Of a DNA stretch of 64,000 nucleotides, positions 2,819 to 20,061 are shown one piece after another. The stretch covers positions 96,403-160,402 of IMG/VR virus record IMGVR_UViG_3300047160_005224; one strand, written 5' to 3'. Position numbers and translations under genes: made by a program. The stretch's first letter is position 1; every line of letters begins with the position of its first letter. Under the pieces are notes generated by a model that ran no database searches, was not told the origin of the DNA, and saw only the letters and a program-made list of their open reading frames with translations. The DNA is from a virus. Taxonomy: Duplodnaviria; Heunggongvirae; Uroviricota; Caudoviricetes.

Positions 2819-2822
2819 GCAT

Positions 2823-2899: not shown

Positions 2900-2933
2900 A
2901 CTGCTAGATCAGCGCTCAAAGCGCAAGATCAAT

Positions 2934-3005: not shown

Positions 3006-3012
3006 ATTTGTT

Positions 3013-3089: not shown

Positions 3090-3097
3090 ATATTTTG

Positions 3098-3173: not shown

Positions 3174-3176
3174 ATT

Positions 3177-3251
3177 TGGTTGTCGGACTGAGAATTGAAC
3201 TCAGCTTCAGCGGTTATCAGCCGCGCGCCCACACCAGCAGGCTCTCCGACA
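3177..3251 (-). tRNA. tRNA-Ile(GAU)
   Basis: Acceptor UGUCGGA/UCCGACA plus A-CCA. T-arm CUGAG-UUCAAUU-CUCAG. Anticodon loop CUGAUAA. Confidence 0.6.
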
Positions 3252-3336
3252 AAATTCTTGAGACCGGAAATTATCCTTCTGCCTGTCTCTTGGCGCATGC
3301 ATATCGGGTTGCCTTAACGCACACAACTGTCGTATT

Positions 3337-3413
3337 TGGTGGGATCAGTGGGACTCGAACCCACAACCTTCGACTTAAAAGGACGCTACTCTAACCAGTT
3401 GAGTTATGACCCC
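3337..3413 (-). tRNA. tRNA-Lys(UUU)?, anticodon stem imperfect
   Basis: Acceptor GGGGUCA/UGAUCCC plus A-CCA. D-arm ACUC-AACUGGUUA-GAGU. Loop CUUUUAA. T-arm GUGGG-UUCGAGU-CCCAC. Confidence 0.5.
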
Positions 3414-3522
3414 CAAAAATTTGTGCCCTGCAGAGCCACCCGATGTTCAGTCCGATGGTTGCTTCTCTCGTCCGGGACCAGACAGGCTTCGAGATGATCA
3501 GCGCAATGCGCAAGATCAAATT

Positions 3523-3596
3523 TGGTGCCCCAATACAGAATCGAACTGTACTCAACGGCTTACAAAACCGTTGCATCACCACAATGCTTTAAGGGC
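3523..3596 (-). tRNA. tRNA-Thr(UGU)
   Basis: T-arm UACAG-UUCGAUU-CUGUA with CCA. Anticodon arm ACGGU-UUUGUAA-GCCGU. One acceptor mismatch. Confidence 0.65.
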
Positions 3597-3747
3597 ATGG
3601 ACGCTTCTCAGCGTCAGAACAGTATATATGAAAGATTTTCAAACTCAACCGATCATCTTTCAAACTTTCTGTCTTTTCGAACAGCGCTTCGCGCCACCCG
3701 AGGTTCACTACTTTACTGATCTACATGGAAAAGTAAAGAGGAACAAG

Positions 3748-3776
3748 TCAATGTGAGAAATGGACATCCTTGTCCA
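3748..3776 (-). terminator. putative intrinsic terminator after gene 3785-4018
   Basis: Hairpin ATGGACA-AGGA-TGTCCAT followed on the minus strand by UUUCUCACAUU. Confidence 0.35.
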
Positions 3777-3784
3777 TACAATCC

Positions 3785-4018
3785 TTACTTGTTCAGACCG
3801 TTCGTCATCGCGCAATAACGATCGTACTTCTCGAGGTCGCCACCACGCATTTTGTACGGATTGGCGCGAATCCCCCAAGTCTTGAGATCGTTCTTGACGC
3901 AACTGCCGCCCTTGTCCTTGCCAGGTGTCTGGCTGCGAGCCTTGACGGTCTTGCCACCCATGCGGCGCGAGGTGGTGCAGTCCGCGTAGAAACCGTTGGC
4001 CAAAAGCTTGATGGTCAT
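3785..4018 (-). CDS. hypothetical protein (77 aa, Lys-rich)
   Basis: Minus ORF; protein-like composition. The overlapping plus ORF 3770-4153 reads as an antisense shadow. Confidence 0.45.
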   Translation of the reverse strand: MTIKLLANGFYADCTTSRRMGGKTVKARSQTPGKDKGGSCVKNDLKTWGIRANPYKMRGGDLEKYDRYCAMTNGLNK

Positions 4019-4032
4019 GATGAAATTCCAGT

Positions 4033-4248
4033 TCAGTGGATGGAGAGATTGGGATCGGGAATTTCTTCCCAGATGTTCTCGGCGAGGATTTCCCCGATGA
4101 CCGTAGAAAGAGCAGTCGCAAAGTTGCGCTCACCAGACTTGTCGGTGCAATGAGCGTAGATTGCCTTTCCTTCTTTGTCGAATTCGACTTCAACGAAGTC
4201 GGTGTCGTCGAGGAAACCTTCGGGATGACGATAGAACTTGGTACTCAT
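4033..4248 (-). CDS. hypothetical protein (~71 aa, start MSTKFY)
   Basis: Minus ORF 4033-4284; internal Met chosen to avoid overlap with the upstream gene. Confidence 0.45.
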   Translation of the reverse strand: MSTKFYRHPEGFLDDTDFVEVEFDKEGKAIYAHCTDKSGERNFATALSTVIGEILAENIWEEIPDPNLSIH

Positions 4249-4264
4249 GATGTAATTCCTTGGA

Positions 4265-4429
4265 TCAGGTGTATTTGACTTCACATTCAGATGCGGGACT
4301 CTCGCGCTCGAGTTCTTTCTTCAGAACACGAACAGCGCGAAGAGCATCAGATTTTGCCATCGAATTTGGATATCCATCCAGAACGGCACGGATCAAATCC
4401 AACTCGTCCAACTGTTCCTGCTTAGTCAT
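4265..4429 (-). CDS. hypothetical protein (~54 aa, start MTKQEQ)
   Basis: Minus ORF, tightly packed with its neighbours. Confidence 0.4.
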   Translation of the reverse strand: MTKQEQLDELDLIRAVLDGYPNSMAKSDALRAVRVLKKELERESPASECEVKYT

Positions 4430-4570
4430 GATGCTCTCTGAAATTCCATTTGCGACCCGCCTTGTGAGATTTGATCGCAAGCGGCTTGCTTACAGTGATG
4501 CGAGAATGGCCATAGCGACGGCGAGTGAACCGCCAATCGCTATGGCGCGCACGCTTTGAGCCGAAAGCTT

Positions 4571-5071
4571 TCATGCAGTGATGCCCGAGATTTCCTTGAG
4601 ACGGTCCGCCGCAAACGACGCAGCGAACGAAGGACCACCACCGAAGCCGTCCTTCGACTTCAGGATTGGCGTAACGTTGCACATGCCCTTGATGTAGCCA
4701 ACCGCTGCCGAAGCAGCCACGTTGGAACCATTGACTTCCGTCGAGGAAATGTCCAGATGCACTTCAACCTCGAAGTCGTAGAACAGCTCTTTGCAGAACA
4801 GGTACATTTCGGCGGACTTCTTGGCTTCCGTCATCATTCGATTGAATGGACGATCCTTGCGCTGGTCCAAGTCCTTTTCGCGGGTGACTTCGCCGAAGAC
4901 CTTGGCACCACGACAACCGTCGATGTGAATGACGATTGCGGTGATATAGTCGGCGAACCAGACACCCTTGTACTTGAACCGCTCGCTGTCGGTACCGATG
5001 TACACCTTGGTTTCCGGACCACAACGGGTCAGGAACTCACGGATTTCTTCGAGATTGACTTTCTTGCCCAT
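4571..5071 (-). CDS. hypothetical protein (166 aa)
   Basis: Minus ORF in an operon-like array. Confidence 0.55.
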   Translation of the reverse strand: MGKKVNLEEIREFLTRCGPETKVYIGTDSERFKYKGVWFADYITAIVIHIDGCRGAKVFGEVTREKDLDQRKDRPFNRMMTEAKKSAEMYLFCKELFYDFEVEVHLDISSTEVNGSNVAASAAVGYIKGMCNVTPILKSKDGFGGGPSFAASFAADRLKEISGITA

Positions 5072-5089
5072 GGCACATTCCCAGGTTGG

Positions 5090-5272
5090 TCAGTCATCAA
5101 ACTGACAATTCTTCAAATCCATCTTGCTCTTGCGACGATAGGATCGACGCATGTAGACCTTGTAGTGACGGATGTGCATCGGAATGCAGCACGGGCAATA
5201 CAATCCACCCGGACCGCAGACATGCCCCAACTGTTCGGCATACTGCTTGTTGCCGTGACGCTTACTAGCCAT
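5090..5272 (-). CDS. hypothetical Cys-rich small protein (60 aa; CGPGGLYCPCC)
   Basis: Minus ORF; Cys cluster suggests a Zn ribbon. Confidence 0.4.
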   Translation of the reverse strand: MASKRHGNKQYAEQLGHVCGPGGLYCPCCIPMHIRHYKVYMRRSYRRKSKMDLKNCQFDD

Positions 5273-5345
5273 GTTGTTTCTCCTGTTAGTAGGTTCAACA
5301 ATTCATGGCGTTCTCCAGTTGGTTACCATCATTGATTAGTTATGT

Positions 5346-5567
5346 TCAGTCCCACGCACTTCGCCTGGAAGTTGGGTCTCCCAGAGCGAAATCGATCGCA
5401 TTTTTGTTTGTGTCGAACTGCGTGTCATGCTTGTGAGTCAGCAAGCTAGTACCATCACGCATTTCGATCGCAATGTAGGTCGGACCCCAAACAATGCGGG
5501 TTACATCTTCTGCATTGATGAGAGTAGTTTTCTCTTCTTCCTTGATCTCGAAGTCCTTCATCTTCAT
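5346..5567 (-). CDS. hypothetical protein (~73 aa, start MKMKDFEI)
   Basis: Minus ORF; start trimmed to abut the stop of gene 5564-6316. Confidence 0.45.
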   Translation of the reverse strand: MKMKDFEIKEEEKTTLINAEDVTRIVWGPTYIAIEMRDGTSLLTHKHDTQFDTNKNAIDFALGDPTSRRSAWD

Positions 5568-6316
5568 CGAGCATTCTCCGGAGGCTTGCGGAACGACCAC
5601 TTGTCGAAACCCTTCTTGGCGATTTGCTCTTTGTCACTGAGCTCAACCATTTCTTTGTCGGGTTTCACGAGAGTGCCGAGATACATGGCAATCTCTTGGT
5701 ACGCCGTGTTCGGGTCGATCACGGAAGCGAAATTGGAATCGCGCAAGCGCGGATTGCGTTTCACTACCAGTTCGAGATAGTACCTACCACCATTGTAGGT
5801 TCTTCGTTCCTCAAAAGCAAGAACTGGCGCACCATATTCTTGGTGAACTGCAAGCCAATCATAGTTGGCTATCAGCCGTTCCATCTCCTCACGTTTGACA
5901 ACCGAGAAGTAAGACATCTGATACTTCTCGTCCCTCGGCGGCAGCTTGGCTTTGGCGCGAGCATCGGCTTCGACACCCTTCTTCGAAGGACCCCATGCTT
6001 CGCTGATCACATCGTAGATCGCAGTGATGTTCCCACCCTTCAACTGATTCGCGACTTTCACGACGCAACGAATGCGCGGATAGAACTTGCCGCAGAACAG
6101 CAGACTGTGATCCTCGAACTCAACCACGTACTGAAGACCATGCGCAGTCACATAGTTCTTATCCCACGTGTCACGCATGATCCAGTTGTGCATGTCGCGA
6201 TCGACATTGAATGGTTTCTGACCATCAGCCTGATCTCGAATGTACAAAAGATCGTCTGCAGCACCGTAGCGCTGCAGACCGTCGTAGTAGTCATTGAATT
6301 TCGAGATGATGCGCAT
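5564..6316 (-). CDS. hypothetical protein (250 aa)
   Basis: Long minus ORF. Confidence 0.6.
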   Translation of the reverse strand: MRIISKFNDYYDGLQRYGAADDLLYIRDQADGQKPFNVDRDMHNWIMRDTWDKNYVTAHGLQYVVEFEDHSLLFCGKFYPRIRCVVKVANQLKGGNITAIYDVISEAWGPSKKGVEADARAKAKLPPRDEKYQMSYFSVVKREEMERLIANYDWLAVHQEYGAPVLAFEERRTYNGGRYYLELVVKRNPRLRDSNFASVIDPNTAYQEIAMYLGTLVKPDKEMVELSDKEQIAKKGFDKWSFRKPPENAR

Positions 6317-6684
6317 CAGTGTCTCGTGTCGTTGCTGGTCGCTTGTTGTGCCCGCAGGATTACTTCGGCTTGAGCCAGCATATTGTCGAGATCGACCACC
6401 AACTTCCCGAGATCTTCCGGACCGCCATTGATGAATTTGATCTCGCCAGAATTGGCGCCAGTGAGATAGCGCTTCACGAAGACGCGATTGCCATTGGTTT
6501 GGATGTAGTCGGCATCGTCGTACTTGGCGTAGACATAGAAGCCAGGCAGAGAGTGGACGCTCTTCGGGAACAGCTCGTCGAGGACAGGATCACCAGTCTT
6601 CGGGATCGCGCCATCACGAACCAAGTTCTTGGCGGCGTACGCGAGGGCACCGAAGACAAAATTCAACTGCTCGTTGTTCATCAC
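6316..6684 (-). CDS. hypothetical protein (122 aa)
   Basis: Minus ORF; ATGA stop/start overlap with the downstream gene. Confidence 0.55.
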   Translation of the reverse strand: MMNNEQLNFVFGALAYAAKNLVRDGAIPKTGDPVLDELFPKSVHSLPGFYVYAKYDDADYIQTNGNRVFVKRYLTGANSGEIKFINGGPEDLGKLVVDLDNMLAQAEVILRAQQATSNDTRH

Positions 6685-7214
6685 GAAATCCTTGATTCAA
6701 TTTGATGCTGGAAGGAATAGAAGCGCGTCTTCGGATCGTAATTGAACTGGATCGTCAACACGAACCTGGCCGATGATGTGTCTTCCATCTTCTGCTTGAA
6801 GTCACCGAATTCGTAACGACGAACCTTGCAGAAGTAGTCGTAGACTTTGCTCATCGTGTAGCCACGAGTTCCGCCGCCACTCACGAAGTCATCGACGAAC
6901 ACCGGAAGGAAGTGTTCGTCGATTTCTTCCTTGATGAATTCGAAGATGCTGTGTTCCACAGACTCACCATGAGACTTCTCGTTCTCCTTGCGAACGTAAG
7001 CCATGGCATACTGAAATTTGGGGAAACTGCGCTGAAGCTCGAGGGAGAGGGCGGTCGCCGAGGCAATGCCCGACATGCCGCTGTAACAGAGGATGGGGAT
7101 CTTCTTGTTCTTCTTGGAACGCTGCTTACAGTACTCCACCAACGCCTTTGCCCATACGATTGCCTGTTCATTAAGCTGTGACGGCTTCTGGGCAAGGCTG
7201 TAGTGCGTGGTCAT
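6681..7214 (-). CDS. type I phosphoribosyltransferase-fold protein
   Basis: PRPP-binding-like motif PVFVDDFVSGGGT. ~178 aa from the MTTHYS start; the full ORF runs to 7286. Confidence 0.45.
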   Translation of the reverse strand: MTTHYSLAQKPSQLNEQAIVWAKALVEYCKQRSKKNKKIPILCYSGMSGIASATALSLELQRSFPKFQYAMAYVRKENEKSHGESVEHSIFEFIKEEIDEHFLPVFVDDFVSGGGTRGYTMSKVYDYFCKVRRYEFGDFKQKMEDTSSARFVLTIQFNYDPKTRFYSFQHQIESRIS

Positions 7215-7376
7215 GGCGCGCTGGTCTCCGACGAAGGTTTGGGCGGTACAAAGAAGGGGTGGGCAACTCACACTCCCTACGATCATTATACGCTATGGCG
7301 TCGGAAAAGCTAGAACTTAATTCGTAGTCGGATCAACAACTTACGTAGAAGCGGTCAATGTTCGACTAACATTGAG

Positions 7377-7467
7377 TGGCGGAAGGCATAGGAATCGAAC
7401 CCAAAGCGCCGGTTAGACGCTCAATCCGTTTTCGAAACGGTTCCAAACCCAGTTTGGTTTACCTTCC
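7377..7467 (-). tRNA. tRNA-Ser(CGA), type II, 91 nt
   Basis: Acceptor GGAAGGU/GCCUUCC plus G-CCA. Anticodon arm ACCGU-UUCGAAA-ACGGA. Long variable arm. T-loop UUCGAUU. Confidence 0.55.
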
Positions 7468-7476
7468 AATGTGGAC

Positions 7477-7707
7477 TTACGGATGAAGTCCAGCGTTAAC
7501 ATATCGGTTCAGTTCCACAAAGAAACCGATCCAGCCTAGGATACCGAAAAAGATTGACAGAGAAGCACAGACGATCCTTCCAGTCAGACTCTCTTTCCTC
7601 TCAGCATGCTTCATTCCCTCCAGCAGTAGGAGTCCTAACAGAAGACATCCAACAGTGGAGAAGAACAAGATTTGTGCGGAAGCCAGGAAAGAGATCAATG
7701 CAAGCAT
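7477..7707 (-). CDS. small membrane protein (76 aa, 2 TM segments)
   Basis: Hydrophobic minus ORF. Confidence 0.45.
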   Translation of the reverse strand: MLALISFLASAQILFFSTVGCLLLGLLLLEGMKHAERKESLTGRIVCASLSIFFGILGWIGFFVELNRYVNAGLHP

Positions 7708-7721
7708 GTACCACCTGAAAT

Positions 7722-7800
7722 TGGTGCCCTAGACAGGACTCGAACCTGCATGATTCCAGTTAGCTTTCTCTTCGTTCGGAACGAAGCAGCTTACAAGGGC
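7722..7800 (-). tRNA. aberrant or rearranged tRNA-like gene with Arg(CCG)-type anticodon hairpin
   Basis: Acceptor GCCCUUG/CUAGGGC plus A-CCA. T-arm GCAGG-UUCGAGU-CCUGU. Hairpin CUUCG-UUCCGAA-CGAAG follows the acceptor directly. D-arm-like AGCUAACUGGAAU sits after the anticodon arm. Confidence 0.35.
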
Positions 7801-7805
7801 AATTG

Positions 7806-8030
7806 CTAAAGAGATTCCCAACAATCGATGCAATCAATGATATTATCGACGAGTTCGTTGTAATCTCTACCTGTGGTGTTCAATCCACCATTCGGTTGTT
7901 CACTGATTGCGATGTATTCGCCGTCCAATCCGATGGACACGTCAAACTCATAGGAACAGTTGTTACCATCAACAATCATCTTCATATTGATCACATGCTC
8001 ATAGCCGGGGTTCTGTTCTAGCCTGATCAT
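7806..8030 (-). CDS. hypothetical protein (~74 aa, start MIRLEQ)
   Basis: Minus ORF; N-terminus trimmed. Confidence 0.4.
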   Translation of the reverse strand: MIRLEQNPGYEHVINMKMIVDGNNCSYEFDVSIGLDGEYIAISEQPNGGLNTTGRDYNELVDNIIDCIDCWESL

Positions 8031-8394
8031 TTTTCTCACCGGAACTCGAATCCGGAGACGTCCCAATAGACGTTGCAGCAACCCGAGTCTCTAGAAGGAG
8101 AGTTACCAGACTCTGTTTGCCTTGCATGCTATATCACGGTGGTTTTAGCGATGATTGATGTCCATTTGGTCCAATCATCTCCCACTCGCTCTCCACGCAT
8201 GCCCCGAACTTCCTCTAACAGCAGAATCAAACACTTCGTAGAACTCAAGTAGCTACTCTTGAGCTCAATCAGAAACCGATCTAGCACAGTTCACGTGATT
8301 GGTGTCCAGATCAGAAACCCAAGTTCGGCTTTCCGGGCGTACATTAGGGAAGTGCTTGAGTCTGCTGCCAGCGATCAGTCGGCATGTGAAACTT

Positions 8395-8469
8395 TGGAGC
8401 CCAAGTCGGTGTTCGAATCCGATTCTACTGCTTACGAGGCAGTTGCATCACCACTCATGCTTCATGGGC
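8395..8469 (-). tRNA. tRNA-Thr(CGU)
   Basis: Acceptor GCCCAUG/CUUGGGC plus U-CCA. D-arm GCAU-GAGUGGUG-AUGC. Anticodon arm ACUGC-CUCGUAA-GCAGU. T-arm UCGGA-UUCGAAC-ACCGA. Confidence 0.6.
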
Positions 8470-8481
8470 AAAACTTATGAA

Positions 8482-8922
8482 TCAAAGATCTCTCAGCGCA
8501 AGGTCGCCAGGAAAGATCTTGTTAGAACGCAGTTCTGTGTATCCAATGTACGGATACGACACGTAATGATAGTCTTTCCTCATTTCCTTGTCGATTCGAC
8601 CGTATTCCTCGACCTTCTGACGATAATTGGCATATTCAGGATTGCGAGAACCACCAACAGGATATGGTGGATACGGATTGGCTCGAGAAGCTGCTTCGTA
8701 GTCATACGGAATCTTTGTTTCGCGATGTTCGAACACACGACGAAACTTCTTGATCTGCATGACAACACGATTGCCTCGACGACCAAGATAGCGACCGAAG
8801 TGCAAGTTTGCACTTCCAGCACACTTTGTCACAGCAACAGCCGGATCACCAGGATGGAGAGTCATTCCATAACTGTTGGTGAACGGAACTTCCTCATATG
8901 GCTTGATACGTGGCGTTGCCAT
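8482..8922 (-). CDS. hypothetical protein (~147 aa, start MATPRIK)
   Basis: Minus ORF 8482-9048 trimmed because a tRNA-Ser occupies 8944-9034. Confidence 0.5.
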   Translation of the reverse strand: MATPRIKPYEEVPFTNSYGMTLHPGDPAVAVTKCAGSANLHFGRYLGRRGNRVVMQIKKFRRVFEHRETKIPYDYEAASRANPYPPYPVGGSRNPEYANYRQKVEEYGRIDKEMRKDYHYVSYPYIGYTELRSNKIFPGDLALRDL

Positions 8923-8943
8923 CAGAACCTCATAACAAAGAAT

Positions 8944-9034
8944 TGGCGGAGAGAGGCTGGAATCGAACCGCTGGCGCTTCCGCGCTCGCATGACTTTCAA
9001 GGTCATCGCTGCATCCCCGGCAGCATCACTCTCC
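8944..9034 (-). tRNA. tRNA-Ser(UGA), type II, weak T-stem
   Basis: Acceptor GGAGAGU/UCUCUCC plus G-CCA. D-stem GCUGC/GCAGC. Anticodon arm AUGAC-CUUGAAA-GUCAU. Variable-arm hairpin GCGC-GGAA-GCGC. T-loop UUCGAUU. Confidence 0.5.
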
Positions 9035-9197
9035 AAATAAGTGAGCACTATCTCTAATGCTCATCCACCGACCGAAACCGATGGAGTGGTATTGGTCCCG
9101 TGTTTTACGTGTTGACTCGGGTTCACGCATGGGATACCATGATCTAGGGACGCCATTTCTGGCTAATCCTCCACCACCCAGTTTACGTCTGGGAACG

Positions 9198-9374
9198 TCA
9201 GTCGTCAAGACCCACAAAATCTGCAAGTTCCTGTCGCGCAGCAAGAAAAGCCTCGCGCAGTCGATGGAACTCAACATCCTTGATTTCCGAGAAAGAGGAG
9301 TATGAATTGAAGGCATAATCAAAGCCTTCACATTCAACCACCGTCTGAACGTACTCAAGGTCTTTCTGCTTCAT
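9198..9374 (-). CDS. hypothetical protein (~58 aa, start MKQKDLEY)
   Basis: Minus ORF trimmed to avoid the tRNA at 9390. Confidence 0.4.
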   Translation of the reverse strand: MKQKDLEYVQTVVECEGFDYAFNSYSSFSEIKDVEFHRLREAFLAARQELADFVGLDD

Positions 9375-9389
9375 GACAATTCTCGTAGC

Positions 9390-9466
9390 TGGTACCGGAG
9401 ATGGGAATCGAACCCACACTTTGGAAGATTTTAAGTTTTCCGCCTCTGCCTTTGGGCTACTCCGGC
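9390..9466 (-). tRNA. tRNA with anticodon UAA (Leu codon UUA) in a type-I body
   Basis: Acceptor GCCGGAG/CUCCGGU plus A-CCA. T-arm GUGGG-UUCGAUU-CCCAU. Anticodon arm GAAAA-CUUAAAA-UCUUC. Confidence 0.45.
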
Positions 9467-9470
9467 AAAT

Positions 9471-9562
9471 TGGTGCTTCAGGTAGGAATCGAACCTACAT
9501 CGTTCCCTTATCTGGGGATCATGGCTTATAAGACCACCGCACTACCATTGTGCTACAGAAGC
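9471..9562 (-). tRNA. type II tRNA, 92 nt, anticodon loop CUUAUAA (UAU); isotype uncertain
   Basis: Acceptor GCUUCUG/CUGAAGC plus A-CCA. D-arm GCAC-AAUGGUA-GUGC. Anticodon arm GUGGU-CUUAUAA-GCCAU. 22-nt variable arm. T-arm GUAGG-UUCGAUU-CCUAC. Confidence 0.45.
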
Positions 9563-9646
9563 AAAGGCGTCGACAATCATCATACATGTCGACTGGTCTA
9601 TCAAACGTTGTCCGTTTCGTAATCGTCCGGCGTTTGACAGAACGTT

Positions 9647-9723
9647 TGGTACCCATGACAGGATTCGAACCTGCACTGAACAGAACCTAAATCTGTTGTC
9701 TCTACCAGTTGGACTACATGGGC
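9647..9723 (-). tRNA. tRNA with anticodon UAG (Leu codon CUA) in a type-I body
   Basis: Acceptor GCCCAUG/CAUGGGU plus A-CCA. Anticodon arm ACAGA-UUUAGGU-UCUGU, G37. T-arm GCAGG-UUCGAAU-CCUGU. Confidence 0.5.
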
Positions 9724-9732
9724 AAAACTATC

Positions 9733-9824
9733 AGGATGCGCGATATACGGGATTCGAACCCGTTAAGTTTGCTTTCAAGGCAAAGTGCGAACCAATCGCG
9801 ATTATTGTTTGCTGCAGGCATCCT
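9733..9824 (-). other. tRNA-like element (UGA anticodon hairpin plus T-arm, no D-arm) inside the inverted repeat AGGAUGC...GCAUCCU
   Basis: Inner stem CGCGAU/AUCGCG, anticodon arm UUUGC-CUUGAAA-GCAAA, T-arm ACGGG-UUCGAAU-CCCGU. Bounded by the same IR as 1512-1580. Confidence 0.35.
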
Positions 9825-9897
9825 AGTTACTGATCGATCAGCGCATTAAGCGCCAGGATCATGTTTGGTTCCGGTGTCACTCACACCGGAGAAGAGA

Positions 9898-10068
9898 TCA
9901 CTTCGTGTCGGTAGTCGAAGTGGACGTCGGCGCGGACTGGGCAACCGGAGCCGTCACGACAGGAGCCGGAGCAGCGACCTGAGCAGCCTTGCTCTTGTGA
10001 TACTTGACGACACCAGCGACGATCAGAGCAACAACGGCAACACCGATAAGAACAACAGACAAGGACAT
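9898..10068 (-). CDS. small membrane protein (~56 aa, one TM then Ala/Pro/Thr-rich tail)
   Basis: Minus ORF trimmed to MSLSVVL because a tRNA-Met lies upstream. Confidence 0.4.
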   Translation of the reverse strand: MSLSVVLIGVAVVALIVAGVVKYHKSKAAQVAAPAPVVTAPVAQSAPTSTSTTDTK

Positions 10069-10099
10069 GGCAGAACTCCAGGGTTTGGCGGGTAGAACT

Positions 10100-10170
10100 T
10101 GGTCGTGGTAACAGGAATCGAACCTGTCCAAATCCCTTATGAGGGGATCGTAGCCCCAGGCGATACCACG
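10100..10170 (-). tRNA. tRNA-Met(CAU), second CAU tRNA, 71 nt
   Basis: Acceptor CGUGGUA/UACCACG plus A-CCA is perfect. Anticodon arm AUCCC-CUCAUAA-GGGAU. T-arm ACAGG-UUCGAUU-CCUGU. Confidence 0.6.
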
Positions 10171-10175
10171 ATGAT

Positions 10176-10269
10176 TGGCGGAAGGCATCGTACTCGAAAC
10201 GAATCCGGTGTTTGAGACCGAACAGATCGCTTAGCAGGCGTCCACAGCATCCTAGCTGCTTTACCTTCC
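10176..10269 (-). tRNA. tRNA-Ser(GCU), type II, 94 nt
   Basis: Acceptor GGAAGGU/GCCUUCC plus G-CCA. D-arm CAGC-UAGGAU-GCUG. Anticodon arm GACGC-CUGCUAA-GCGAU. Long variable arm. T-loop UUCGAGU. Confidence 0.55.
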
Positions 10270-10274
10270 AGAAT

Positions 10275-10363
10275 TGGCGGGAAAAGTTGGAGTCGAACCA
10301 TTGGTTGATTTTGCTGTAACGACTCTACTTCAGAGTCAGTCCGGCGCCAGCCGGGCTTTTCCC
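10275..10363 (-). tRNA. type II tRNA, 89 nt; anticodon hairpin GACUC-UGAAGUA-GAGUC, isotype uncertain (Leu-like?)
   Basis: Acceptor GGGAAAA/UUUUCCC plus G-CCA is perfect. D-stem CCGG/CCGG. Weak T-stem. Confidence 0.45.
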
Positions 10364-10373
10364 GTTTGAAACT

Positions 10374-10451
10374 TGGTACCCCTGGTCGGACTCGAACCGA
10401 CAAATCTCCGATTTTTGAGAACGGTGCATCTACCAATTCTGCTACAGGGGC
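10374..10451 (-). tRNA. tRNA with anticodon CAA (Leu codon UUG) in a type-I body
   Basis: Acceptor GCCCCUG/CAGGGGU plus A-CCA. Anticodon loop CUCAAAA. T-arm GUCGG-UUCGAGU-CCGAC. Confidence 0.5.
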
Positions 10452-10790: not shown

Positions 10791-11273
10791 TCAGTGGATT
10801 GTGGTGCCTTCCGGCAGGATGGCATCGAGACCATCCAGACCCAGCTTAGTCAGCTCATCGACGATGTCGGAGCGACGTGCCGGATCATTCTTGATGTTCT
10901 CGATTTCCTCGAGAGCCGCCGCATTGACGGTGGTGCCCGGGAAAGTTTCGACGACGTGCTTGGCCAGGGCGAGGTGATTGATTTCGCGCTGACCATTGCT
11001 CTCGACGATGAACTTGTTGTCGCCGAAAAGCATGTCCACCATCAGAGCTTCGTTACCGACGCCGGAGAGTTCGCGGGCGAGGCATTCGGTGATGATGTGC
11101 AGGTCGAGCGGCAGCACCTTGTTGGTGTCGACGTCTTCCGCGTAGTCGAACTTGAAGTTCTGGCTGATGTACAGCGCAGCATCGTTCGGGCAGCTCAGGC
11201 GCTTCAGCGCATTGAGCAGGGAGTTGGACAGGAAGACCGACTGCAGGTCGGCAGTGACGCGATCGAATGCCAT
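10791..11273 (-). CDS. hypothetical protein (~160 aa, start MAFDRV; alternative start at 11342)
   Basis: Minus ORF directly downstream of the tmRNA terminator. Confidence 0.55.
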   Translation of the reverse strand: MAFDRVTADLQSVFLSNSLLNALKRLSCPNDAALYISQNFKFDYAEDVDTNKVLPLDLHIITECLARELSGVGNEALMVDMLFGDNKFIVESNGQREINHLALAKHVVETFPGTTVNAAALEEIENIKNDPARRSDIVDELTKLGLDGLDAILPEGTTIH

Positions 11274-11336
11274 GATATAGTTCCGTTTTGGTGGTGGAAA
11301 GTTTTCAGAGAACCTATCGTAGCATTCTCGTGCGTC

Positions 11337-11379
11337 AAACAAAAGAGGAGCTGCCCAATGAGGGACCTAGAAGGGCAGC
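11337..11379 (-). terminator. rho-independent terminator at the 3' end of the tmRNA coding piece
   Basis: Hairpin GCUGCCC...GGGCAGC followed on the minus strand by UCCUCUUUUGUUUG. Confidence 0.6.
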
Positions 11380-11700
11380 GAGTCTAGGGAGATTGTCGGT
11401 CAAGACTGCCGATTAGGCAGCGAGACGGACCTCAAACGTGTCATCGTTTGCGTTTACTTTGTTTTATGCCGATTACGTCGGGCATCTCTCGGGCTGTCAG
11501 CTCGCATATCTTCCCACGTCGAAACCTGGTCCACCCCATCAAAAACACAGTGTCCATAACGCGGACTTGTCTCGACTTCGCAGAGTGCACATACCGCTGA
11601 TCGTCTAACTGTGCTTTTGGTGGAGTGGGCGGGAATCGAACCCGCGTCCGCAAGACCTTTTGGTCACATCATACAGCCATAACTTCAAAGATGTACTCTA
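11345..11700 (-). ncRNA. ssrA: tmRNA (ssrA), circularly permuted two-piece form
   Basis: tRNA-like 3' half GGACGCGGGUUCGAUUCCCGCCCACUCCACCA at 11650-11618 lies upstream of the 5' acceptor strand GGGGUGG (11537-11531; G3-U70 pair). Then GACCAGGUUUCGACGUGGGA, close to E. coli GGGGCUGAUUCUGGAUUCGACGGGA. Tag frame GCA-AAC-GAU-GAC-ACG-UUU-GAG-GUC-CGU-CUC-GCU-GCC-UAA reads ANDDTFEVRLAA. Terminator follows. Confidence 0.7.
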
Positions 11701-12044
11701 CCGTGCTTTTGTAGGGGTAAGCAAAGCAGCCATTCTTCAGAGTCCTGCAGAACCCAAGAACGCTTTCTTTACTGCACGCGAAACCATTACGTTTGTCGTA
11801 GAGCACATGTTTGAAACTACTGGGCGCTTCGCCAGTCACACTCGCGAGCTTTCTCGTTTTGAGTATTCGTCAGATGCGCATTAACCTGTTTACATCAGGT
11901 CAGACTAGTCCTCAATTCTTCTTCGCCGGCAAACTTGCCCCATTCGTCAATAGGATTTGCCTTACAGCGGGGTACCACCTTTTGCGGTATCAGACCTGCA
12001 GCAAGCGGGACTGGCGAAGCACCCAGTAGAAACAGTATATAGCT

Positions 12045-12554
12045 TCAATCGAACAAAGAGTTGACATTTCTGATGTAAAACTTGGAACGATTTTCCAAAC
12101 ACTCGATGATGTCATGTTTGTTGACGGCATCATCGATCAGCCAGGTGGCTGTGTGATGGAACATGCTGCTGTTCCGGAGTTTGAACAGAACATCTTCCTT
12201 CTTGCACACGTCAAACAAATCCTGCCGCGATACCTTGCATCGGGTTTCCTCAAACACCGCGCGAGCCCAATCATCCATCGAGAAGATGAGGTCGTCATCG
12301 AATTTGAAGTTCAGACAACCTTCTAGCCACTCGCGATGATGCTTGTTGAAGGTGTCGATGTCGCGGTGATCCCAGATTGCCCAAGACATGATGCCTAGCT
12401 TGCATTGCATCGGAGTGGGATGTGGAAGCCATTCACCATGAAGGAATTTCTTCACCTGTTGACCTTTGAATTGCCAAACAGGATCATCCCAGGAATCGAT
12501 CACCGTCTCTTCGAGATCAAGGAGAACGATGAAGTTTTGTTCGGTATCAAACAT
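12045..12554 (-). CDS. hypothetical protein (169 aa)
   Basis: Minus ORF. Confidence 0.55.
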   Translation of the reverse strand: MFDTEQNFIVLLDLEETVIDSWDDPVWQFKGQQVKKFLHGEWLPHPTPMQCKLGIMSWAIWDHRDIDTFNKHHREWLEGCLNFKFDDDLIFSMDDWARAVFEETRCKVSRQDLFDVCKKEDVLFKLRNSSMFHHTATWLIDDAVNKHDIIECLENRSKFYIRNVNSLFD

Positions 12555-15323: not shown

Positions 15324-16021
15324 CCCTCCATCGGAAACGGCAGATAGACTTGCGCATTCATGCGGATTTCGTTCGTGACGTTCTTTTGACGATCGGTCTG
15401 AATCGAAGCACGACCGAACCAACGCCAACCGTTCTTGCGCGCAGGAATGGCTTGATGGAAGTCGAACGAATCGAACAGGATCAACTGGCGATCCGGGACT
15501 TCGAGTACATCGACGGTTCCGTTCTTGACCATTTCCTCCAGCTCAAGATGCCACTGTCGATAGATGAGTTCGCCATCCGGGACCTGCTTCATCTTGCATG
15601 TGCCATGGATGAATTGGGTCGGTGCGACTTCAGCATTGACCAACCCCATCATATGCACTGCCTTGTACGACATGTTCTCGTAATCAGGCTGCGATGCCGT
15701 CAGGAAATGCTGGCCAGCAGGAATGGGCGGACGAGGAACATCGTCGTGGTGCCAGCCGGGAATGCCAGGATACCAACCAGGCATCAGCATGTGCACACGA
15801 CTGTCGAACACCGCATTGTCCCAGTCGACATGGCCAGGAAGATTGCCGATGAAGGACTTGGTGATCGGTCCGCCATGTTCGAAAGCAAACTTTGCGCTGG
15901 CATTGAAGAACATCGGTTCCTTCTTGATGTCTTCGTTGGGCACCTGCTCAGCAAACCTGACTGGCCTACTAGTAGAACTCATGGCATGCCAGCCGCTGTA
16001 GAAGACCTTGCCTTCCTTCAT
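15317..16021 (-). CDS. putative 2OG-Fe(II) oxygenase superfamily protein (PhyH-like)
   Basis: 234 aa. HxD-like motif GWHHDD and a C-terminal His-x10-Arg (FHQAIPARKNGWRW). Sits immediately upstream of NadV. Confidence 0.4.
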   Translation of the reverse strand: MKEGKVFYSGWHAMSSTSRPVRFAEQVPNEDIKKEPMFFNASAKFAFEHGGPITKSFIGNLPGHVDWDNAVFDSRVHMLMPGWYPGIPGWHHDDVPRPPIPAGQHFLTASQPDYENMSYKAVHMMGLVNAEVAPTQFIHGTCKMKQVPDGELIYRQWHLELEEMVKNGTVDVLEVPDRQLILFDSFDFHQAIPARKNGWRWFGRASIQTDRQKNVTNEIRMNAQVYLPFPMEGW

Positions 16022-17463
16022 ACCGAAGCCCTCTTGCGGATGTTGTCGAAGATGTCGAGGCGAACGTGGGTGTCGGTCGTGTCATGGTGATAGACCGTTT
16101 CGAGTTGATTTCGCGGAGCATCCATGCCGAGCGCGAACCACGCGCTCTTACGCATCGTGCCCCAAACATCGCCATCACGGATCACGGCGAACTGACCGCG
16201 CTTCGACTTCTTGCCTTTGTCGGTCACCGGATCCTTGTAGATGTCGACTTCCTTGCCATTCACGATGCCCCAACTTGCCTTCATCGCCCACTTGAAGGTG
16301 TCACGATTGACTTGCTGGAGCAAACCGCCGCCCATGCCGAAGGCAAGGCAGTCCATCGAGAAGCCACGATTGAGCAAGTTGTCGATGATTTTGGGAATCG
16401 ATGTAACATTGATGCCGTCGCCCTGGATCACGCCGACATACGGCGGAAGGACCTTGTAGCCCTTGTCGTTGATCAGCTTCTCAGGAGTCAGATCCCAAAG
16501 CATCTCGACGATGTCGATCGGAACTACCAACGGATCGCCGCTGTCGGGGCGGATGACGACCTTGCATCCCTTCGCCTTGACTTGTTCCAGAAGACCGGTG
16601 CCGACCCAGAGGTTTCGCACGGCATTGTAGATGTCGTAGGCGTCCGATACCACAGCAAAGATCTTGCCAGGCTCGGTGGCGTACGCATCGATCATTGCCT
16701 GGAAGGCTTCACGTTCGCCTTCCTTGCCGCGGATCGTCATGGTGCTGTGCTCTGCGGCAGGAATCGAGAAGCCGCAGACGTCAGCGTTGTAGTAGTGCAT
16801 GGCAGCAGCGATGCCGGCGATGGTGTCCGAGCCCATGAAATTGATCAGATGGGCAGCACCACCAAGCTGTGCCGACTCATCGCTCGAGACGCCGCGATAA
16901 CCGAAGTCGTGTAGCTTGAACGTGACGCTTGCGGGATCACCAGAACGATCCAGAGCATCAAGGATGTATTCCTTGCAAGTGCGCGAAATCGTGGCGACGG
17001 TCGAACCATACCAGACGCTGCTCAGGATTGCCGGCTCGAAATACGAAGTGAGCCATGCGCACTTGTCGTCGGTGTTGACGATTTGGACCATCGGAGTGCC
17101 GATCGGGACAGGCGTGCCTTCCGGAATGGCTTCGATGTGAAGCGGAAGGAAGCCCTGGTGATGATTGACGATGTACAGCCAGCCATCGAGATTGAACGGC
17201 TCGCCATGAACCTTGGCGAACGCTGCCGCCTCGTTGACTTCTTCGACGGTGATTGGCTGTAACAGGAAGTCCTTGACGAACTTCTGAAGACCGAACATGA
17301 CGACATGTTCGACACCTTGGATGGTCGAGCCACGCGCTTCGATGTACGACGAGATGTACTTGGTACCTTTGGGATACTGCGCGAAATGGCTGAGCTTGTA
17401 GCTGTCCGTCTTCAGGAGACGGTTATTGAGAATCGACATCAGAAACTCCTTCTTGATGGTCAT
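16018..17463 (-). CDS. nadV: nicotinamide phosphoribosyltransferase (NAMPT/NadV family)
   Basis: ~480 aa with the conserved NAMPT N-terminus LLKTDSYKLSHF. PRTase type II length and composition. Confidence 0.75.
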   Translation of the reverse strand: MTIKKEFLMSILNNRLLKTDSYKLSHFAQYPKGTKYISSYIEARGSTIQGVEHVVMFGLQKFVKDFLLQPITVEEVNEAAAFAKVHGEPFNLDGWLYIVNHHQGFLPLHIEAIPEGTPVPIGTPMVQIVNTDDKCAWLTSYFEPAILSSVWYGSTVATISRTCKEYILDALDRSGDPASVTFKLHDFGYRGVSSDESAQLGGAAHLINFMGSDTIAGIAAAMHYYNADVCGFSIPAAEHSTMTIRGKEGEREAFQAMIDAYATEPGKIFAVVSDAYDIYNAVRNLWVGTGLLEQVKAKGCKVVIRPDSGDPLVVPIDIVEMLWDLTPEKLINDKGYKVLPPYVGVIQGDGINVTSIPKIIDNLLNRGFSMDCLAFGMGGGLLQQVNRDTFKWAMKASWGIVNGKEVDIYKDPVTDKGKKSKRGQFAVIRDGDVWGTMRKSAWFALGMDAPRNQLETVYHHDTTDTHVRLDIFDNIRKRASV

Positions 17464-17508
17464 TGGCAGGGAGGCATCTGTTGCCTCCACAGAGTAGATA
17501 GGAGAAGT

Positions 17509-17991
17509 TTAGTCCTTCAGCAGCGGACCAAACACTACATCGCCGGTCAGTTTACGGAACGCCAGCTTCGAGACAATGGACTTGCGTTTCCGCTCGCGCT
17601 CAGAGGCATCCCAATCCTTGCGGAGAGCAGCTTGCTCGATCCGAACATTGATGTGGGCATAGACTTCGAGCATGATGGACACAACTTCCGGATCATCTTC
17701 GCATTGGAAGTAACCATCAAAGAGATTGCCGGAAACTTCCGAGCCGAGTTTGATTTCCTCGTCACCGATCATGTATGTCACACGAACGGAGTTGTATCCA
17801 AATCCACGTTCGAGATAGACCTTGAGAGGACCGCCCGTTGCGGGAATGCTGAACGACAGAGTCCACTCACGATCACGGACCTGACGAGCAGATGGAGCAT
17901 GCCAAGTAAGATGGCGGATAGCTCCTTCCATCATCTTGTCGAACGCCTGCCAGCGTTCACGAATTCTGCGACGCTTCTTGAAGCCAAACAT
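17509..17991 (-). CDS. hypothetical protein (160 aa)
   Basis: Minus ORF. Confidence 0.5.
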   Translation of the reverse strand: MFGFKKRRRIRERWQAFDKMMEGAIRHLTWHAPSARQVRDREWTLSFSIPATGGPLKVYLERGFGYNSVRVTYMIGDEEIKLGSEVSGNLFDGYFQCEDDPEVVSIMLEVYAHINVRIEQAALRKDWDASERERKRKSIVSKLAFRKLTGDVVFGPLLKD

Positions 17992-18443
17992 CAGTAGGTC
18001 TCCGCTTCGCGTTCGATGAGATCGGCAAGCGCGCCGAAATCGAGATTGTAGGTGTCGTTGAGTTCAGAAAGCTCATACTTCCTGGGAAATTTGTCTTCGG
18101 CCGAGGCACCACGCACTCCTTCATCAACTTCTGATGTCAGAGCGTGCACACTCAAAGAGTACCCAACACCATCGTTCCATTGCTGGGACGCTTCCGGAAG
18201 TTCAATACCGTGATCACGATACCAACCCAACGTTGGCAGTGAGCAAGGCTCACTGATGCCGATTGGGGAATTGTATTCGACTTTACCGTCAGCAACCATC
18301 TGCAGGACGCCAAGACAGCAGTAACCGACTTCTCCATCAGGACGTTTTGCTTGGAGGAAATGGCATGCTTGGTTGTATCGTTCCGAGCACAGAGCTTCGA
18401 CCCACTTGGTCAACAGCTCTTTGGGCATTTTGAACAAGCTCAT
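17991..18443 (-). CDS. paralog family member 1 (150 aa; WVEALCSERYNQ...CCLGVLQMVADGK...LNDTYNLDFGALADLIE)
   Basis: Shares N- and C-terminal motifs with five downstream paralogs. Confidence 0.6.
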   Translation of the reverse strand: MSLFKMPKELLTKWVEALCSERYNQACHFLQAKRPDGEVGYCCLGVLQMVADGKVEYNSPIGISEPCSLPTLGWYRDHGIELPEASQQWNDGVGYSLSVHALTSEVDEGVRGASAEDKFPRKYELSELNDTYNLDFGALADLIEREAETY

Positions 18444-18676
18444 GATTCGGTTGCCTTGGTGACAAAGTTATGAACGGTTTCTGACAGTTCGTTCTCGCCC
18501 ATATATCCTAACTTAGACGAAAGCCAATCCATATCAGCCTTCGATACAACCACGAACTCTTCTTCCCAGTTGGTGATCTTTGGAAAGTGAAGGATCGTAC
18601 TTGCCGGAACGGTGCTTGGCAGAAAGACTGCGACCGTGAATCCATTACCAGGAAATGTTCCGACTTCGATCTTCAT
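18440..18676 (-). CDS. hypothetical protein (78 aa), inserted between paralogs
   Basis: Minus ORF. Confidence 0.45.
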   Translation of the reverse strand: MKIEVGTFPGNGFTVAVFLPSTVPASTILHFPKITNWEEEFVVVSKADMDWLSSKLGYMGENELSETVHNFVTKATES

Positions 18677-19131
18677 CAGACACCTTCCACGTACTTCTCG
18701 ACGAGATTGGCGATCTCCACGAACGAGAGACCTACTTCGTCGTTCAGTGCCGAAAGCGAATAACGACCGCCAATCATGTCAACGATGCTGGCGCGTCCAG
18801 TCGGAAGATTGAATGCCTTGATATCAGACAAAGAGACTTCAATCACGATCGGAATTTCATCACACGCCATCATTCCGGCACTGTATTCAAAACCAGGATC
18901 CGGTTCGATGTTGTGCTCTTCATACCAGCGAATGATTGGAAGCGCTGGGCGAGGATTGCCTTCGCTGTCGTCGATCTTGCCATCAGCAACCATCTGCAGG
19001 ACGCCGAGGCAGCAATAGCTGTGTTCACCGGAAGAATCGGTATCCCTCATCGTTCCAGTGCATTGCTTGTATTCGCCAGAACGAAGCGCGGCAATCCAGT
19101 TGTTCTTGAGTTCAGCAGGCATCTTCGACAT
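18676..19131 (-). CDS. paralog family member 2 (151 aa)
   Basis: Motifs WIAALRSGEYKQ, CCLGVLQMVADGK and C-terminal LNDEVGLSFVEIANLVE. Confidence 0.6.
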   Translation of the reverse strand: MSKMPAELKNNWIAALRSGEYKQCTGTMRDTDSSGEHSYCCLGVLQMVADGKIDDSEGNPRPALPIIRWYEEHNIEPDPGFEYSAGMMACDEIPIVIEVSLSDIKAFNLPTGRASIVDMIGGRYSLSALNDEVGLSFVEIANLVEKYVEGV

Positions 19132-19136
19132 GGCGA

Positions 19137-19613
19137 TTAGTCCGTTACTTCGATATTGGGTTCGAGGATATCAGCGATGTGAGCAAAATCGCACTGATAT
19201 TCGTCGTTCAGGATAGGAACGCGAATTGTCCTGATCGCAGATTCGCTTTCCGTCTCGACAATAGCACTCACCAATGGATTGGTGTTTACTATAGCTGCAA
19301 CGGACGCACCCGAGAACGAAATCCCATGTTTGATGAGCCAGTCAGAGCTTGGCAGACCAAGAGAATCACCATCGGGAAAGTGTTCGACTTGGCCATCCAC
19401 GACCATCTGCAGGACGCCGAGGCAGCAGAACTTTCCTTCATTGGTCATCAACTGACCGATGCCCTTTTGGAATTGACCAGAACGAAGACCTTCCAGCCAT
19501 TTCTCTTTGATGATGCGCGGCATACGCATCGTGCATTCGACAGGAGTCTTGACAGGATTGATCACCATGTCGGAGTCGATATGGCAGACGTCGGCAACTT
19601 CGATCTTGTTCAT
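19137..19613 (-). CDS. paralog family member 3 (~159 aa from MNKIEV; ORF extends to 19886)
   Basis: Motifs WLEGLRSGQFQKG, CCLGVLQMVVDGQ and C-terminal LNDEYQCDFAHIADILE. Confidence 0.55.
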   Translation of the reverse strand: MNKIEVADVCHIDSDMVINPVKTPVECTMRMPRIIKEKWLEGLRSGQFQKGIGQLMTNEGKFCCLGVLQMVVDGQVEHFPDGDSLGLPSSDWLIKHGISFSGASVAAIVNTNPLVSAIVETESESAIRTIRVPILNDEYQCDFAHIADILEPNIEVTD

Positions 19614-19623
19614 GACTGATTCC

Positions 19624-20061
19624 TCAGGTGCTCTCGATGGATGCTTCGAGGAAGTCCGCCATTTGCTCGAACGACGCGCCAGCATCGTTGACATGAGCAG
19701 CATTGAACATCCCTTCGTAGCCAGTTCGCTCTTCACGAAGGAACAGCATTGGTGCGCGAAGTGTGCCGTTTGCCAAGTCGCCGGATTGGCGCTGAAACAG
19801 AATGTTGTGTTCCTGCAACCATTCGACAGATGGAAAACTGGCGAATTTGGGCTCGAAGGCCAACGCATCATCCTCGACGCGACCACTCACCACCATCTCG
19901 AGAACACCCAAACAGCAGTAACCGCCCCTGCCGTCACACAAAGAACCGAAGCCCTGTTGATATTCACCAGAACGGAGAGCGCTCAACCACTTTTCCTTGA
20001 TTTCAGCAGGCATCGTGATGCTCTTGCGACCAACAGCAGTGTAACTTTCCATCGACATGAC
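19624..20061 (-). CDS. paralog family member 4 (~146 aa from MSMESY; ORF extends to 20349)
   Basis: Motifs WLSALRSGEYQQG, CCLGVLEMVVSGR and C-terminal VNDAGASFEQMADFLE. Confidence 0.55.
   Translation of the reverse strand, partial: VMSMESYTAVGRKSITMPAEIKEKWLSALRSGEYQQGFGSLCDGRGGYCCLGVLEMVVSGRVEDDALAFEPKFASFPSVEWLQEHNILFQRQSGDLANGTLRAPMLFLREERTGYEGMFNAAHVNDAGASFEQMADFLEASIEST

Follow-up and report, generated by a model that had tools for sequence, protein, structure and literature searches.

A circularly permuted tmRNA gene in a T4-like phage known from metagenome assemblies

Transfer-messenger RNA (tmRNA), the ribosome-rescue RNA encoded by ssrA, has been described in a two-piece form in Caulobacter (Keiler et al. 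2000, as summarised in PMC3985003), and reviews describe the tag of two-piece tmRNAs as flanked by a pseudoknot on either side (PMC3985003). Phages carry related genes: isolate phages hold 53 unique two-piece tmRNAs (PMC9004378), and the tmRNA database has 79 phage entries (PMC11915505). In marine myophages (Methylophilales phage Melnitz and pelagimyophages; PMC9004378), a permuted ssrA gene is likewise borne by a T4-like phage; these tmRNAs are of the alpha type, contain a glutamine riboswitch in the 3' domain, and need not match the host gene in form or lineage. The phage-borne homologues of the Bxz1 group of mycobacteriophages, of Bacillus phage G and of DS6A, whose RNA consists of the tRNA-like domain (TLD) only, are of standard order or tagless and presumably depend on host SmpB (PMC4131195). 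Here we describe an ssrA gene that is permuted, has a full tag and presumably shares this dependence. It lies on the minus strand of a 64,000-nucleotide stretch of tailed-phage DNA (IMG/VR record IMGVR_UViG_3300047160_005224, positions 96,403 to 160,402), hereafter the window, in whose numbering all positions are given. The permuted order, the tRNA-like domain, a P2 helix between the pieces and the layout of pseudoknot 1 (PK1), tag and pseudoknot 2 (PK2) are those of the two-piece tmRNAs of Betaproteobacteria (Rfam families RF01850 and RF04321). In contrast to these, the gene is phage-borne, its 5' strand carries the motif UGUAUGA where the beta consensus reads UGUAAUUCC, its intervening segment measures 80 nucleotides against about 30 in the model, and its PK1 is reduced to a hairpin.

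The locus is confirmed as a genuine circularly permuted tmRNA gene of a T4-like phage. ARAGORN calls a permuted tmRNA (tmRNA*) at 11322-11710 on the minus strand with the tag ANDDTFEVRLAA. Two Rfam covariance models match the same strand over their full length: RF04321 (tmRNA_permuted) at 11413-11678 with 127.1 bits (gathering score 47; E = 1.7e-24), and RF01850 (beta_tmRNA, model positions 1-331) at 11403-11727 with 100.2 bits (gathering score 84). Among the permuted models beta_tmRNA is the top one here, the other clan members being outcompeted, and a TLD pattern has a single match in the window and none in 100 shuffles. Direct reading of the minus strand gives the same order, with the T arm and the acceptor 3' strand plus CCA (11620-11618) upstream of the acceptor 5' strand GGGGUGG (11537-11531). 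A preliminary description, made from the sequence alone, had proposed a permuted two-piece-type ssrA gene at this place, and all these approaches bear it out. Both Rfam families stand above their gathering thresholds, ARAGORN and the sequence agree with it on the tag frame and its LAA end, and its coordinates for the acceptor strands, the G3:U70 pair, the CCA and the tag deviate by no more than 1 nucleotide. The E. coli tmRNA 5' sequence that it cited for comparison agrees completely with the annotated ssrA gene in 5426 of 5426 genomes.

It is probable that this is a functional permuted ssrA gene, in structure of the beta-proteobacterial type. In the genome of the uncultivated T4-like phage it occupies the upstream end of an array of about 35 tRNA genes. 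An identical 440-nucleotide region is present in a 110-kb contig of the European Nucleotide Archive (sample ERZ27255812), possibly the window's own source. An assembly artefact is unlikely, because the proteins neighbouring the tmRNA are carried by metagenome contigs from several samples. The 5' limit of the gene was set at a conserved motif, UAUGGCUGUAUGA, and the 3' limit at the end of a U tract:

11337..11681, minus strand: whole permuted tmRNA (ssrA) gene, in the order acceptor piece, intervening segment, coding piece
11618..11681, minus strand: acceptor piece of about 64 nucleotides (sequence and covariance-model alignment; predicted 5' end)
11538..11617, minus strand: intervening segment of 80 nucleotides, presumed excised (fold and covariation)
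11337..11537, minus strand: coding piece of about 200 nucleotides, starting at G1 = 11537, the predicted RNase P site (processing sites predicted)

The tRNA-like domain and the P2 helix, the latter joining the two pieces, comprise the following elements, assigned from the sequence and, for P2, also from covariance-model alignment and covariation:

11645-11641, loop, 11633-11629, minus strand: T arm, GCGGG, loop UUCGAUU, CCCGC
11628-11622, minus strand: acceptor 3' strand CCACUCC
11621, minus strand: discriminator A (A73)
11620-11618, minus strand: encoded CCA
11537-11531, minus strand: acceptor 5' strand GGGGUGG
11526-11518, minus strand: D-loop analogue GGUUUCGAC
11655-11650 with 11517-11512, minus strand: P2a, UCUUGC with GUGGGA
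11678-11673 with 11497-11492, minus strand: P2d, GGCUGU with ACAGCC

The motif at which the acceptor piece starts is conserved in related phages. The acceptor stem GGGGUGG/CCACUCC is formed by seven pairs, including G3:U70 (G11535 opposite U11624); the identity pair of alanyl-tRNA synthetase (AlaRS) that had been claimed is thus present by sequence. In an alignment of 57 non-identical relatives, to which the percentages of pairing given here and below refer, pairing is complete (100%) in the T arm and the acceptor stem, with compensatory changes, and across a six-phage alignment the T arm (GGUUCGAUUCC) and the D-loop analogue are present and invariant. P2a is 98.8% paired with compensatory changes at all six pairs, and P2d 99.4% paired with compensatory changes at four of six, against 26-63% in controls with a slid partner strand. 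The middle part of P2 contains mismatches in the covariance-model alignment.

The intervening segment folds back on itself. Its trailer AAAGCACAGU (11617-11608) pairs with its leader ACUGUGUUUU (11551-11542) in a helix that extends the acceptor stem, and a conserved UGAU (11541-11538) directly precedes G1 at the UGAU/GGGG junction. The fold of 11531-11628 is a single continuous helix of -39.8 kcal/mol (z = -4.4), unequalled in 200 shuffles. Among 86 permuted relatives the trailer-leader helix has a mean of 9.8 contiguous base pairs compared with 4.2 in shuffles; in the 57-relative alignment it is 91% paired, with both-side changes at 10 of 10 pairs, whereas controls with a slid partner reach 39-55%. 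The length of the segment ranges in relatives from 4 to 194 nucleotides. Such covariation marks a stem that serves RNA processing and is not the pattern of a coding region. A hairpin at 11566-11552 followed by a U run was considered as an internal terminator and rejected, as candidates of this kind occur at chance level (2 found, 1.0 expected); the hairpin is part of the precursor fold.

Two IMG/VR contigs have long intervening segments, of 159 (L125) and 194 nucleotides (L036). In the former, an open frame of about 45 codons occurs together with an ATG and a Shine-Dalgarno-like motif, and in the latter an ATG-initiated frame of about 60 codons reaches into the tmRNA 5' end; in these contigs a small gene may be nested between the tmRNA halves.

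The coding piece shows the succession of PK1, tag and PK2, followed by a U-rich tract:

11466..11491, minus strand: PK1 region, with the hairpin AUGCC(C)GA, loop CGUAA, UCGGCAU at 11485-11466
11413..11451, minus strand: tag reading frame, GCA at 11451-11449, 12 codons encoding ANDDTFEVRLAA, stop UAA at 11415-11413
11405..11421, minus strand: helix-5-like hairpin, GCUGCC with GGCAGU around the loop UAAUC, the stop codon in the loop (fold)
11350..11388, minus strand: PK2, an H-type pseudoknot
11388-11383 with 11371-11366, minus strand: PK2 stem 1, CCUAGA with UCUAGG
11379-11373 with 11356-11350, minus strand: PK2 stem 2, GCUGCCC with GGGCAGC
within PK2, minus strand: cuc between the first strands of the two stems, u between GCUGCCC and UCUAGG, and loop 3, UCCCUCAUU
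11337..11349, minus strand: U-rich tract UCCUCUUUUGUUU, after PK2 stem 2

The resume codon is preceded by U at -5 and A at -4, the equivalents of U85 and A86 of E. coli (where the context AAUAGUC/GCA was verified). Tags of relatives start with ANDD or ANDS and end in LAA or IAA; many relatives from the IMG/VR scan described below have 10-residue tags of the ANDE.FALAA type, compared with the 12 residues of the window. The window tag has no exact match in IMG/VR. The G3:U70 pair, the GGxUUCGAC element, the T loop, the U-5/A-4 context before GCA and the tag form ANDxxxxxLAA are all shared with E. coli SsrA (RF00023), which by contrast is a one-piece RNA with four pseudoknots, where the permuted RNA of the window has one clear pseudoknot and one hairpin.

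That pseudoknot is PK2. A search for it yields 13 base pairs in the window, where shuffles average 7.5 and never exceed 12; over the family the average is 12.3 base pairs against 7.4. The architecture is kept with unrelated stem sequences in Stenotrophomonas phage DLP_6 (CACAGC/GCUGUG; GCCCC/GGGGC), in the relatives L087 and L031, and in others. Stem 2 and the following U tract probably act as an intrinsic terminator, with which the coding piece would end on its 3' side; a U-rich tail, defined as at least 5 U in the 10 nucleotides past stem 2, also follows PK2 in 22 of 87 relatives (L031, L054 and L093 are examples). Taken as a plain hairpin, stem 2 has a 7-bp stem and a 16-nucleotide loop, with -15 kcal/mol and z = -1.5, and it was left uncalled in a terminator scan because of the size of this loop. 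The hairpin and U tract of the "strong intrinsic terminator" earlier placed at 11337-11379 are therefore present, but the z-score and the silent scan do not agree with the word strong, and the hairpin is better read as PK2 stem 2.

Homologous genes occur in phages that are unrelated to each other. Permuted beta-type tmRNAs were found in isolate phages of Stenotrophomonas (Menderavirus, DLP_6, QDWS359), Xanthomonas (JGB6, Rb1), Pseudomonas aeruginosa (SM1 and relatives) and an acidobacterium (Tunturi_4). Those of DLP_6, of the Menderavirus phages Marzo and Yut2, in which they are annotated as tmRNA/SsrA, and of JGB6, Rb1, QDWS359 and SM1 are of the same structural type as the window gene, with RF04321 scores of 103-137 bits throughout; the RF01850 threshold is passed too in DLP_6, Marzo, JGB6 and SM1. 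As in the window, the tmRNA adjoins tRNA genes in DLP_6, Marzo, JGB6, Rb1 and QDWS359. The tags of these Stenotrophomonas, Xanthomonas and Pseudomonas phages (ANDDSFAPMAIAA, ANDDSYTVRIAA, ANDTSFDVRLAA) resemble that of the window, whereas PK2 stems and intervening segment are entirely different in sequence. The unannotated permuted tmRNA of DLP_6 (L001 2885-3228) is 83% identical over a 192-nucleotide core, and the gene order nicotinamide phosphoribosyltransferase (NAMPT), small open reading frames (ORFs), tmRNA, tRNAs is common to both phages; retention across such divergence (57.5% identity in NrdA) argues for function. In a scan of IMG/VR, at least 120 contigs were recovered, of which at least 87 have a permuted tmRNA by ARAGORN. 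With these and the 53 of isolate phages (PMC9004378), the earlier remark that such a gene is unusual cargo for a phage does not hold: phage two-piece tmRNAs are documented and numerous, dozens of phages carry them, and the window gene is a further example.

Some of these records deserve separate mention. In JGB6 and QDWS359 (L003 1185-1593; L005 1176-1593), coding sequences (CDSs) for hypothetical proteins are annotated over the tmRNA. The P. aeruginosa siphophages of the SM1/PaMx31 group, among them SM1 (L097 10387-10807, KU245542), have an unannotated permuted tmRNA whose tag, ANDTSFDVRLAA, is very like that of the window, though the P. aeruginosa tag is ANDDNYALAA. In Tunturiibacter phage Tunturi_4 (L006 1076-1928), the permuted tmRNA encodes a 33-residue tag and abuts the gene of an RF-1-domain (ArfB-like) peptide release factor; no ArfB-like gene was found in the window.

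The structural elements, read in the light of established tmRNA biology (Keiler et al. 2000, in PMC3985003), suggest how the RNA would be produced and used. The whole permuted gene would be transcribed as a single precursor, in which the trailer-leader helix would hold the halves together during the action of tRNA-processing enzymes. RNase P would cut at G1 (11537), 3' trimming would halt at the encoded CCA (11618), and the 80-nucleotide intervening segment would be excised, leaving an acceptor piece of about 64 nucleotides base-paired to a coding piece of about 200. Host AlaRS would charge the RNA with alanine by way of G3:U70, and host SmpB and EF-Tu would bring it to ribosomes that have stalled on truncated mRNAs. 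Translation would resume at GCA, the nascent chain would gain (A)ANDDTFEVRLAA, and the tagged protein would be degraded via its LAA degron by host proteases of the ClpXP type. Host SmpB, AlaRS and proteases would be needed because the window encodes no SmpB: none was detected among its minus-strand ORFs of at least 55 amino acids, in a search whose positive control worked. The 68 phage records matching SmpB include no Stenotrophomonas or Xanthomonas among the genera listed, three further genera being outside that list. The likely benefit for the phage is that ribosomes would be kept available in (late) infection, when host transcription is shut off and mRNA cleavage yields non-stop messages; this would fit the large tRNA complement, and the position of the Tunturi_4 tmRNA beside an ArfB-like gene lends small support to a rescue role.

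Three observations weigh against a functional tmRNA. First, little of PK1 is left beyond a hairpin: the sole candidate for its stem 1 has 2 bp, C11491-G11476 and G11490-C11477. The hairpin shows compensatory changes in close relatives, as in DLP_6 (AUG(A)CCGA/UCGGCAU), L087 (GCGCC(C)GA/UCGGCGC) and Marzo (GCG(A)CUGA/UCAGCGC); it is energetically weak (-5.9 kcal/mol, z = -0.7) and, at 47% paired, is not kept in register across the broad family, and is therefore claimed for close relatives only. Second, the helix-5-like hairpin, which is stable in the window (-9.2 kcal/mol, z = -3.1, 0 of 200 shuffles equal), is not in register in relatives (41% paired) and is therefore claimed for the window sequence only. 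Third, a sigma-70 scan upstream of the tmRNA gave no convincing promoter.

The approximately 360 nucleotides upstream of the tmRNA (11682-12044) are without a convincing ORF, Rfam match or consensus promoter. At about 11721-11714 the motif TTTGCTTA is similar to the MotA box of T4; no claim is made for it, since no -10 element lies at a fitting distance. In contrast to the marine myophage tmRNAs, the locus has no glutamine riboswitch; neither this nor any other further RNA family was found by Rfam in 11150-12100, even at E <= 1.

The permuted form had been taken earlier as a hint of an alpha- or beta-proteobacterial or cyanobacterial host. This is contradicted by the nearest relatives, which are found in phages of Stenotrophomonas, Xanthomonas and Pseudomonas, and by the host genes sampled. 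The Xanthomonas-type ssrA is one-piece (RF00023, 197 bits) with the tag ANDDNYGSDFAIAA, which is listed for X. campestris (PMC12493166), and the P. aeruginosa-type ssrA is one-piece as well (RF00023, 228 bits; the tag of this species is ANDDNYALAA, PMC13159725). In a pattern scan of bacterial genomes for the UGUAUGA subtype, permuted copies were confined to Stenotrophomonas (six genomes), Luteimonas (one genome) and two short contigs of metagenome-assembled genomes (MAGs); seven matches in Nitrospirota are standard tmRNAs. The Stenotrophomonas copies are 75-77% identical to the window core, closest after DLP_6 and one IMG/VR contig, and their similarity weakly favours a Xanthomonadales-like host. 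The tail fibre of the window phage is closest to that of Ralstonia phage RP13 (43% identity over 63% of the length) and other proteins are closest to DLP_6, for which reason the host is left unassigned. T4-like Stenotrophomonas phages have a G+C content of 54% compared with 67% in the host (PMC6940310).

The bacterial copies (L133, L135, L136, L139, L140 and L144, from several species of Stenotrophomonas, and the Luteimonas MAG L138, on contigs of up to about 1 Mb) are permuted beta-type tmRNAs scoring 104-140 bits with RF04321, and their tags, such as ANADYYDQNEQDTLLAA, are long and unusual. The tmRNA adjoins a gene for a TonB-dependent receptor in L135 and L140, with no phage-family hit among the ORFs scanned.

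We tentatively consider, as a possibility that is improbable though worth stating, that the UGUAUGA subtype was not taken from the host but is a phage or mobile-element lineage. It would move between unrelated phages whose hosts have one-piece ssrA (Menderavirus, T4-like phages, Pseudomonas phage SM1 and siphoviruses with genomes of 60-106 kb), and was perhaps deposited in Stenotrophomonas and Luteimonas chromosomes. The phage copy would then be a tool of takeover or counter-defence, rescuing ribosomes stalled by nuclease-based host defences or by phage-induced mRNA decay, beyond a simple supplement to the host.

Of the remaining explanations, each is less likely than a working tmRNA. The RNA might act mainly as a decoy that titrates host SmpB or competes with host tmRNA and thereby suppresses host trans-translation. 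Conservation is by far highest in the tRNA-like domain, PK1 is degenerate, and the window lacks an SmpB gene. A decoy role has been suggested for the TLD-only molecule of DS6A, and an RNA of this kind is reported to inhibit tmRNA in E. coli (PMC4131195, PMC11915505). A pure decoy, however, needs neither PK2 and the coding piece, which are maintained, nor a tag; the tag frame is intact in its U-5/A-4 context, ANDD start and LAA end, and comparable frames are kept in unrelated phages. A decoy is accordingly considered unlikely.

We regard as equally doubtful that the gene encodes a working tmRNA of altered specificity, whose distinct 12-residue tag ending in EVRLAA would reroute proteins, for example through altered adaptor or protease use or through the recycling of amino acids for phage synthesis; the recycling idea is raised in PMC9004378. 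Phage tags do differ from the host tags ANDDNYGSDFAIAA of X. campestris and ANDDNYALAA of P. aeruginosa (PMC12493166, PMC13159725), and endings of the ...RLAA and ...RIAA type recur in phages of different hosts, but where a tag is known to matter, in its SspB region (here ANDD-like) and its C-terminal LAA, that of the window is canonical.

Very improbable is a neutral passenger, or an integration-site remnant, be it a recently captured host ssrA or an attP-type fragment, functionless in the phage. The ssrA gene is a frequent integration site of temperate phages, in which pieces of it are often found (PMC9004378, PMC4131195), and some of the IMG/VR matches are standard tmRNAs, maybe at prophage borders. 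The window gene, by contrast, is complete with both halves and is embedded in phage genes on both sides (the tRNA array and T4-like genes), with no integrase-type family among the Pfam hits of the window ORFs; its synteny with the distant DLP_6 is conserved, it shows compensatory evolution, and the hosts of related phages have the one-piece form. That the ORF at 11441-11653 (70 amino acids, TTG start) is a real protein gene and the RNA signals a coincidence can be dismissed as the preliminary description had done, mainly because the intervening segment that it spans varies from 4 to 194 nucleotides and evolves by compensatory base-pair changes: the frame is open, and hypothetical-protein CDSs are likewise annotated across the tmRNA of JGB6 and QDWS359, but it lies wholly within the RNA gene in a frame different from that of the tag, starts inside the T arm, and faces covariance-model E-values of 1e-24 to 1e-29.

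The phage that carries this working-tmRNA candidate is a T4-like phage known from metagenome assemblies only. No close isolate exists at the DNA level, as a megablast of 20 kb against isolate phages returned trivial hits only; the nearest isolate is DLP_6, to which proteins other than the tail fibre are 31-57% identical (NrdA at 57.5%, another at 31.5%). The genes of the window lie nearly all on the minus strand, and its G+C content is about 50%. The tmRNA stands at the upstream end of a tRNA array at 58-10451 (minus strand), composed of 33 genes called by ARAGORN and 2 found by Rfam only (7725-7800 and 8398-8469). Between 12 and 64 kb are T4-like genes for NAMPT, a NadR-like enzyme, a gp33-type late-transcription coactivator, T4 RNase H, PhoH, dCMP deaminase, NrdA, NrdB and a tail fibre.

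Several features of this neighbourhood were noted in passing. The tRNA genes, all on the minus strand, cover 19 amino acids, with no tRNA-His among the ARAGORN calls. The tRNA at 9471-9562 (minus strand), with anticodon UAU and called as Ile, is 92 nucleotides long; its variable arm is a long, class-II-like hairpin, and its CCA is encoded. In its DLP_6 homologue (L001 1203-1297) the extra arm shows compensatory changes (CCCC/GGGG compared with CCGC/GCGG). An NAD salvage pair is formed by NAMPT at 16018-17490 and a NadR-like cytidylyltransferase plus NUDIX protein at 23906-24976 (both minus strand), and NAMPT lies beside the tmRNA in DLP_6 likewise. Five tandem paralogues on the minus strand (17991-18443, 18676-19131, 19137-19886, 20069-20524 and 20535-21086) share a (Y/F)CCLGVLQ(M/E)V motif and an N-terminal KEKW..ALRSGEY element, none having a Pfam match. 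A DUF2828/DUF7788 protein (PHROG 850, "RNA-binding protein") is encoded near a von Willebrand A-domain protein (27111-28544 and 29325-30470, minus strand), and the two may form a module for RNA handling in this tRNA- and tmRNA-rich genome.

The gene adds a well-characterised example to the small class of phage tmRNAs and provides a structural map for experiments, which includes the piece boundaries, the covarying precursor stem and a PK2 that would double as terminator. Phage tmRNAs are often missed or overwritten by hypothetical-protein calls, as in DLP_6, JGB6 and QDWS359. The form of the gene in a phage, permuted or standard, is apparently independent of that in the host and is not to be used for host prediction. 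Candidate roles of phage tmRNAs are the support of phage translation, the countering of defence systems and the re-routing of proteolysis.

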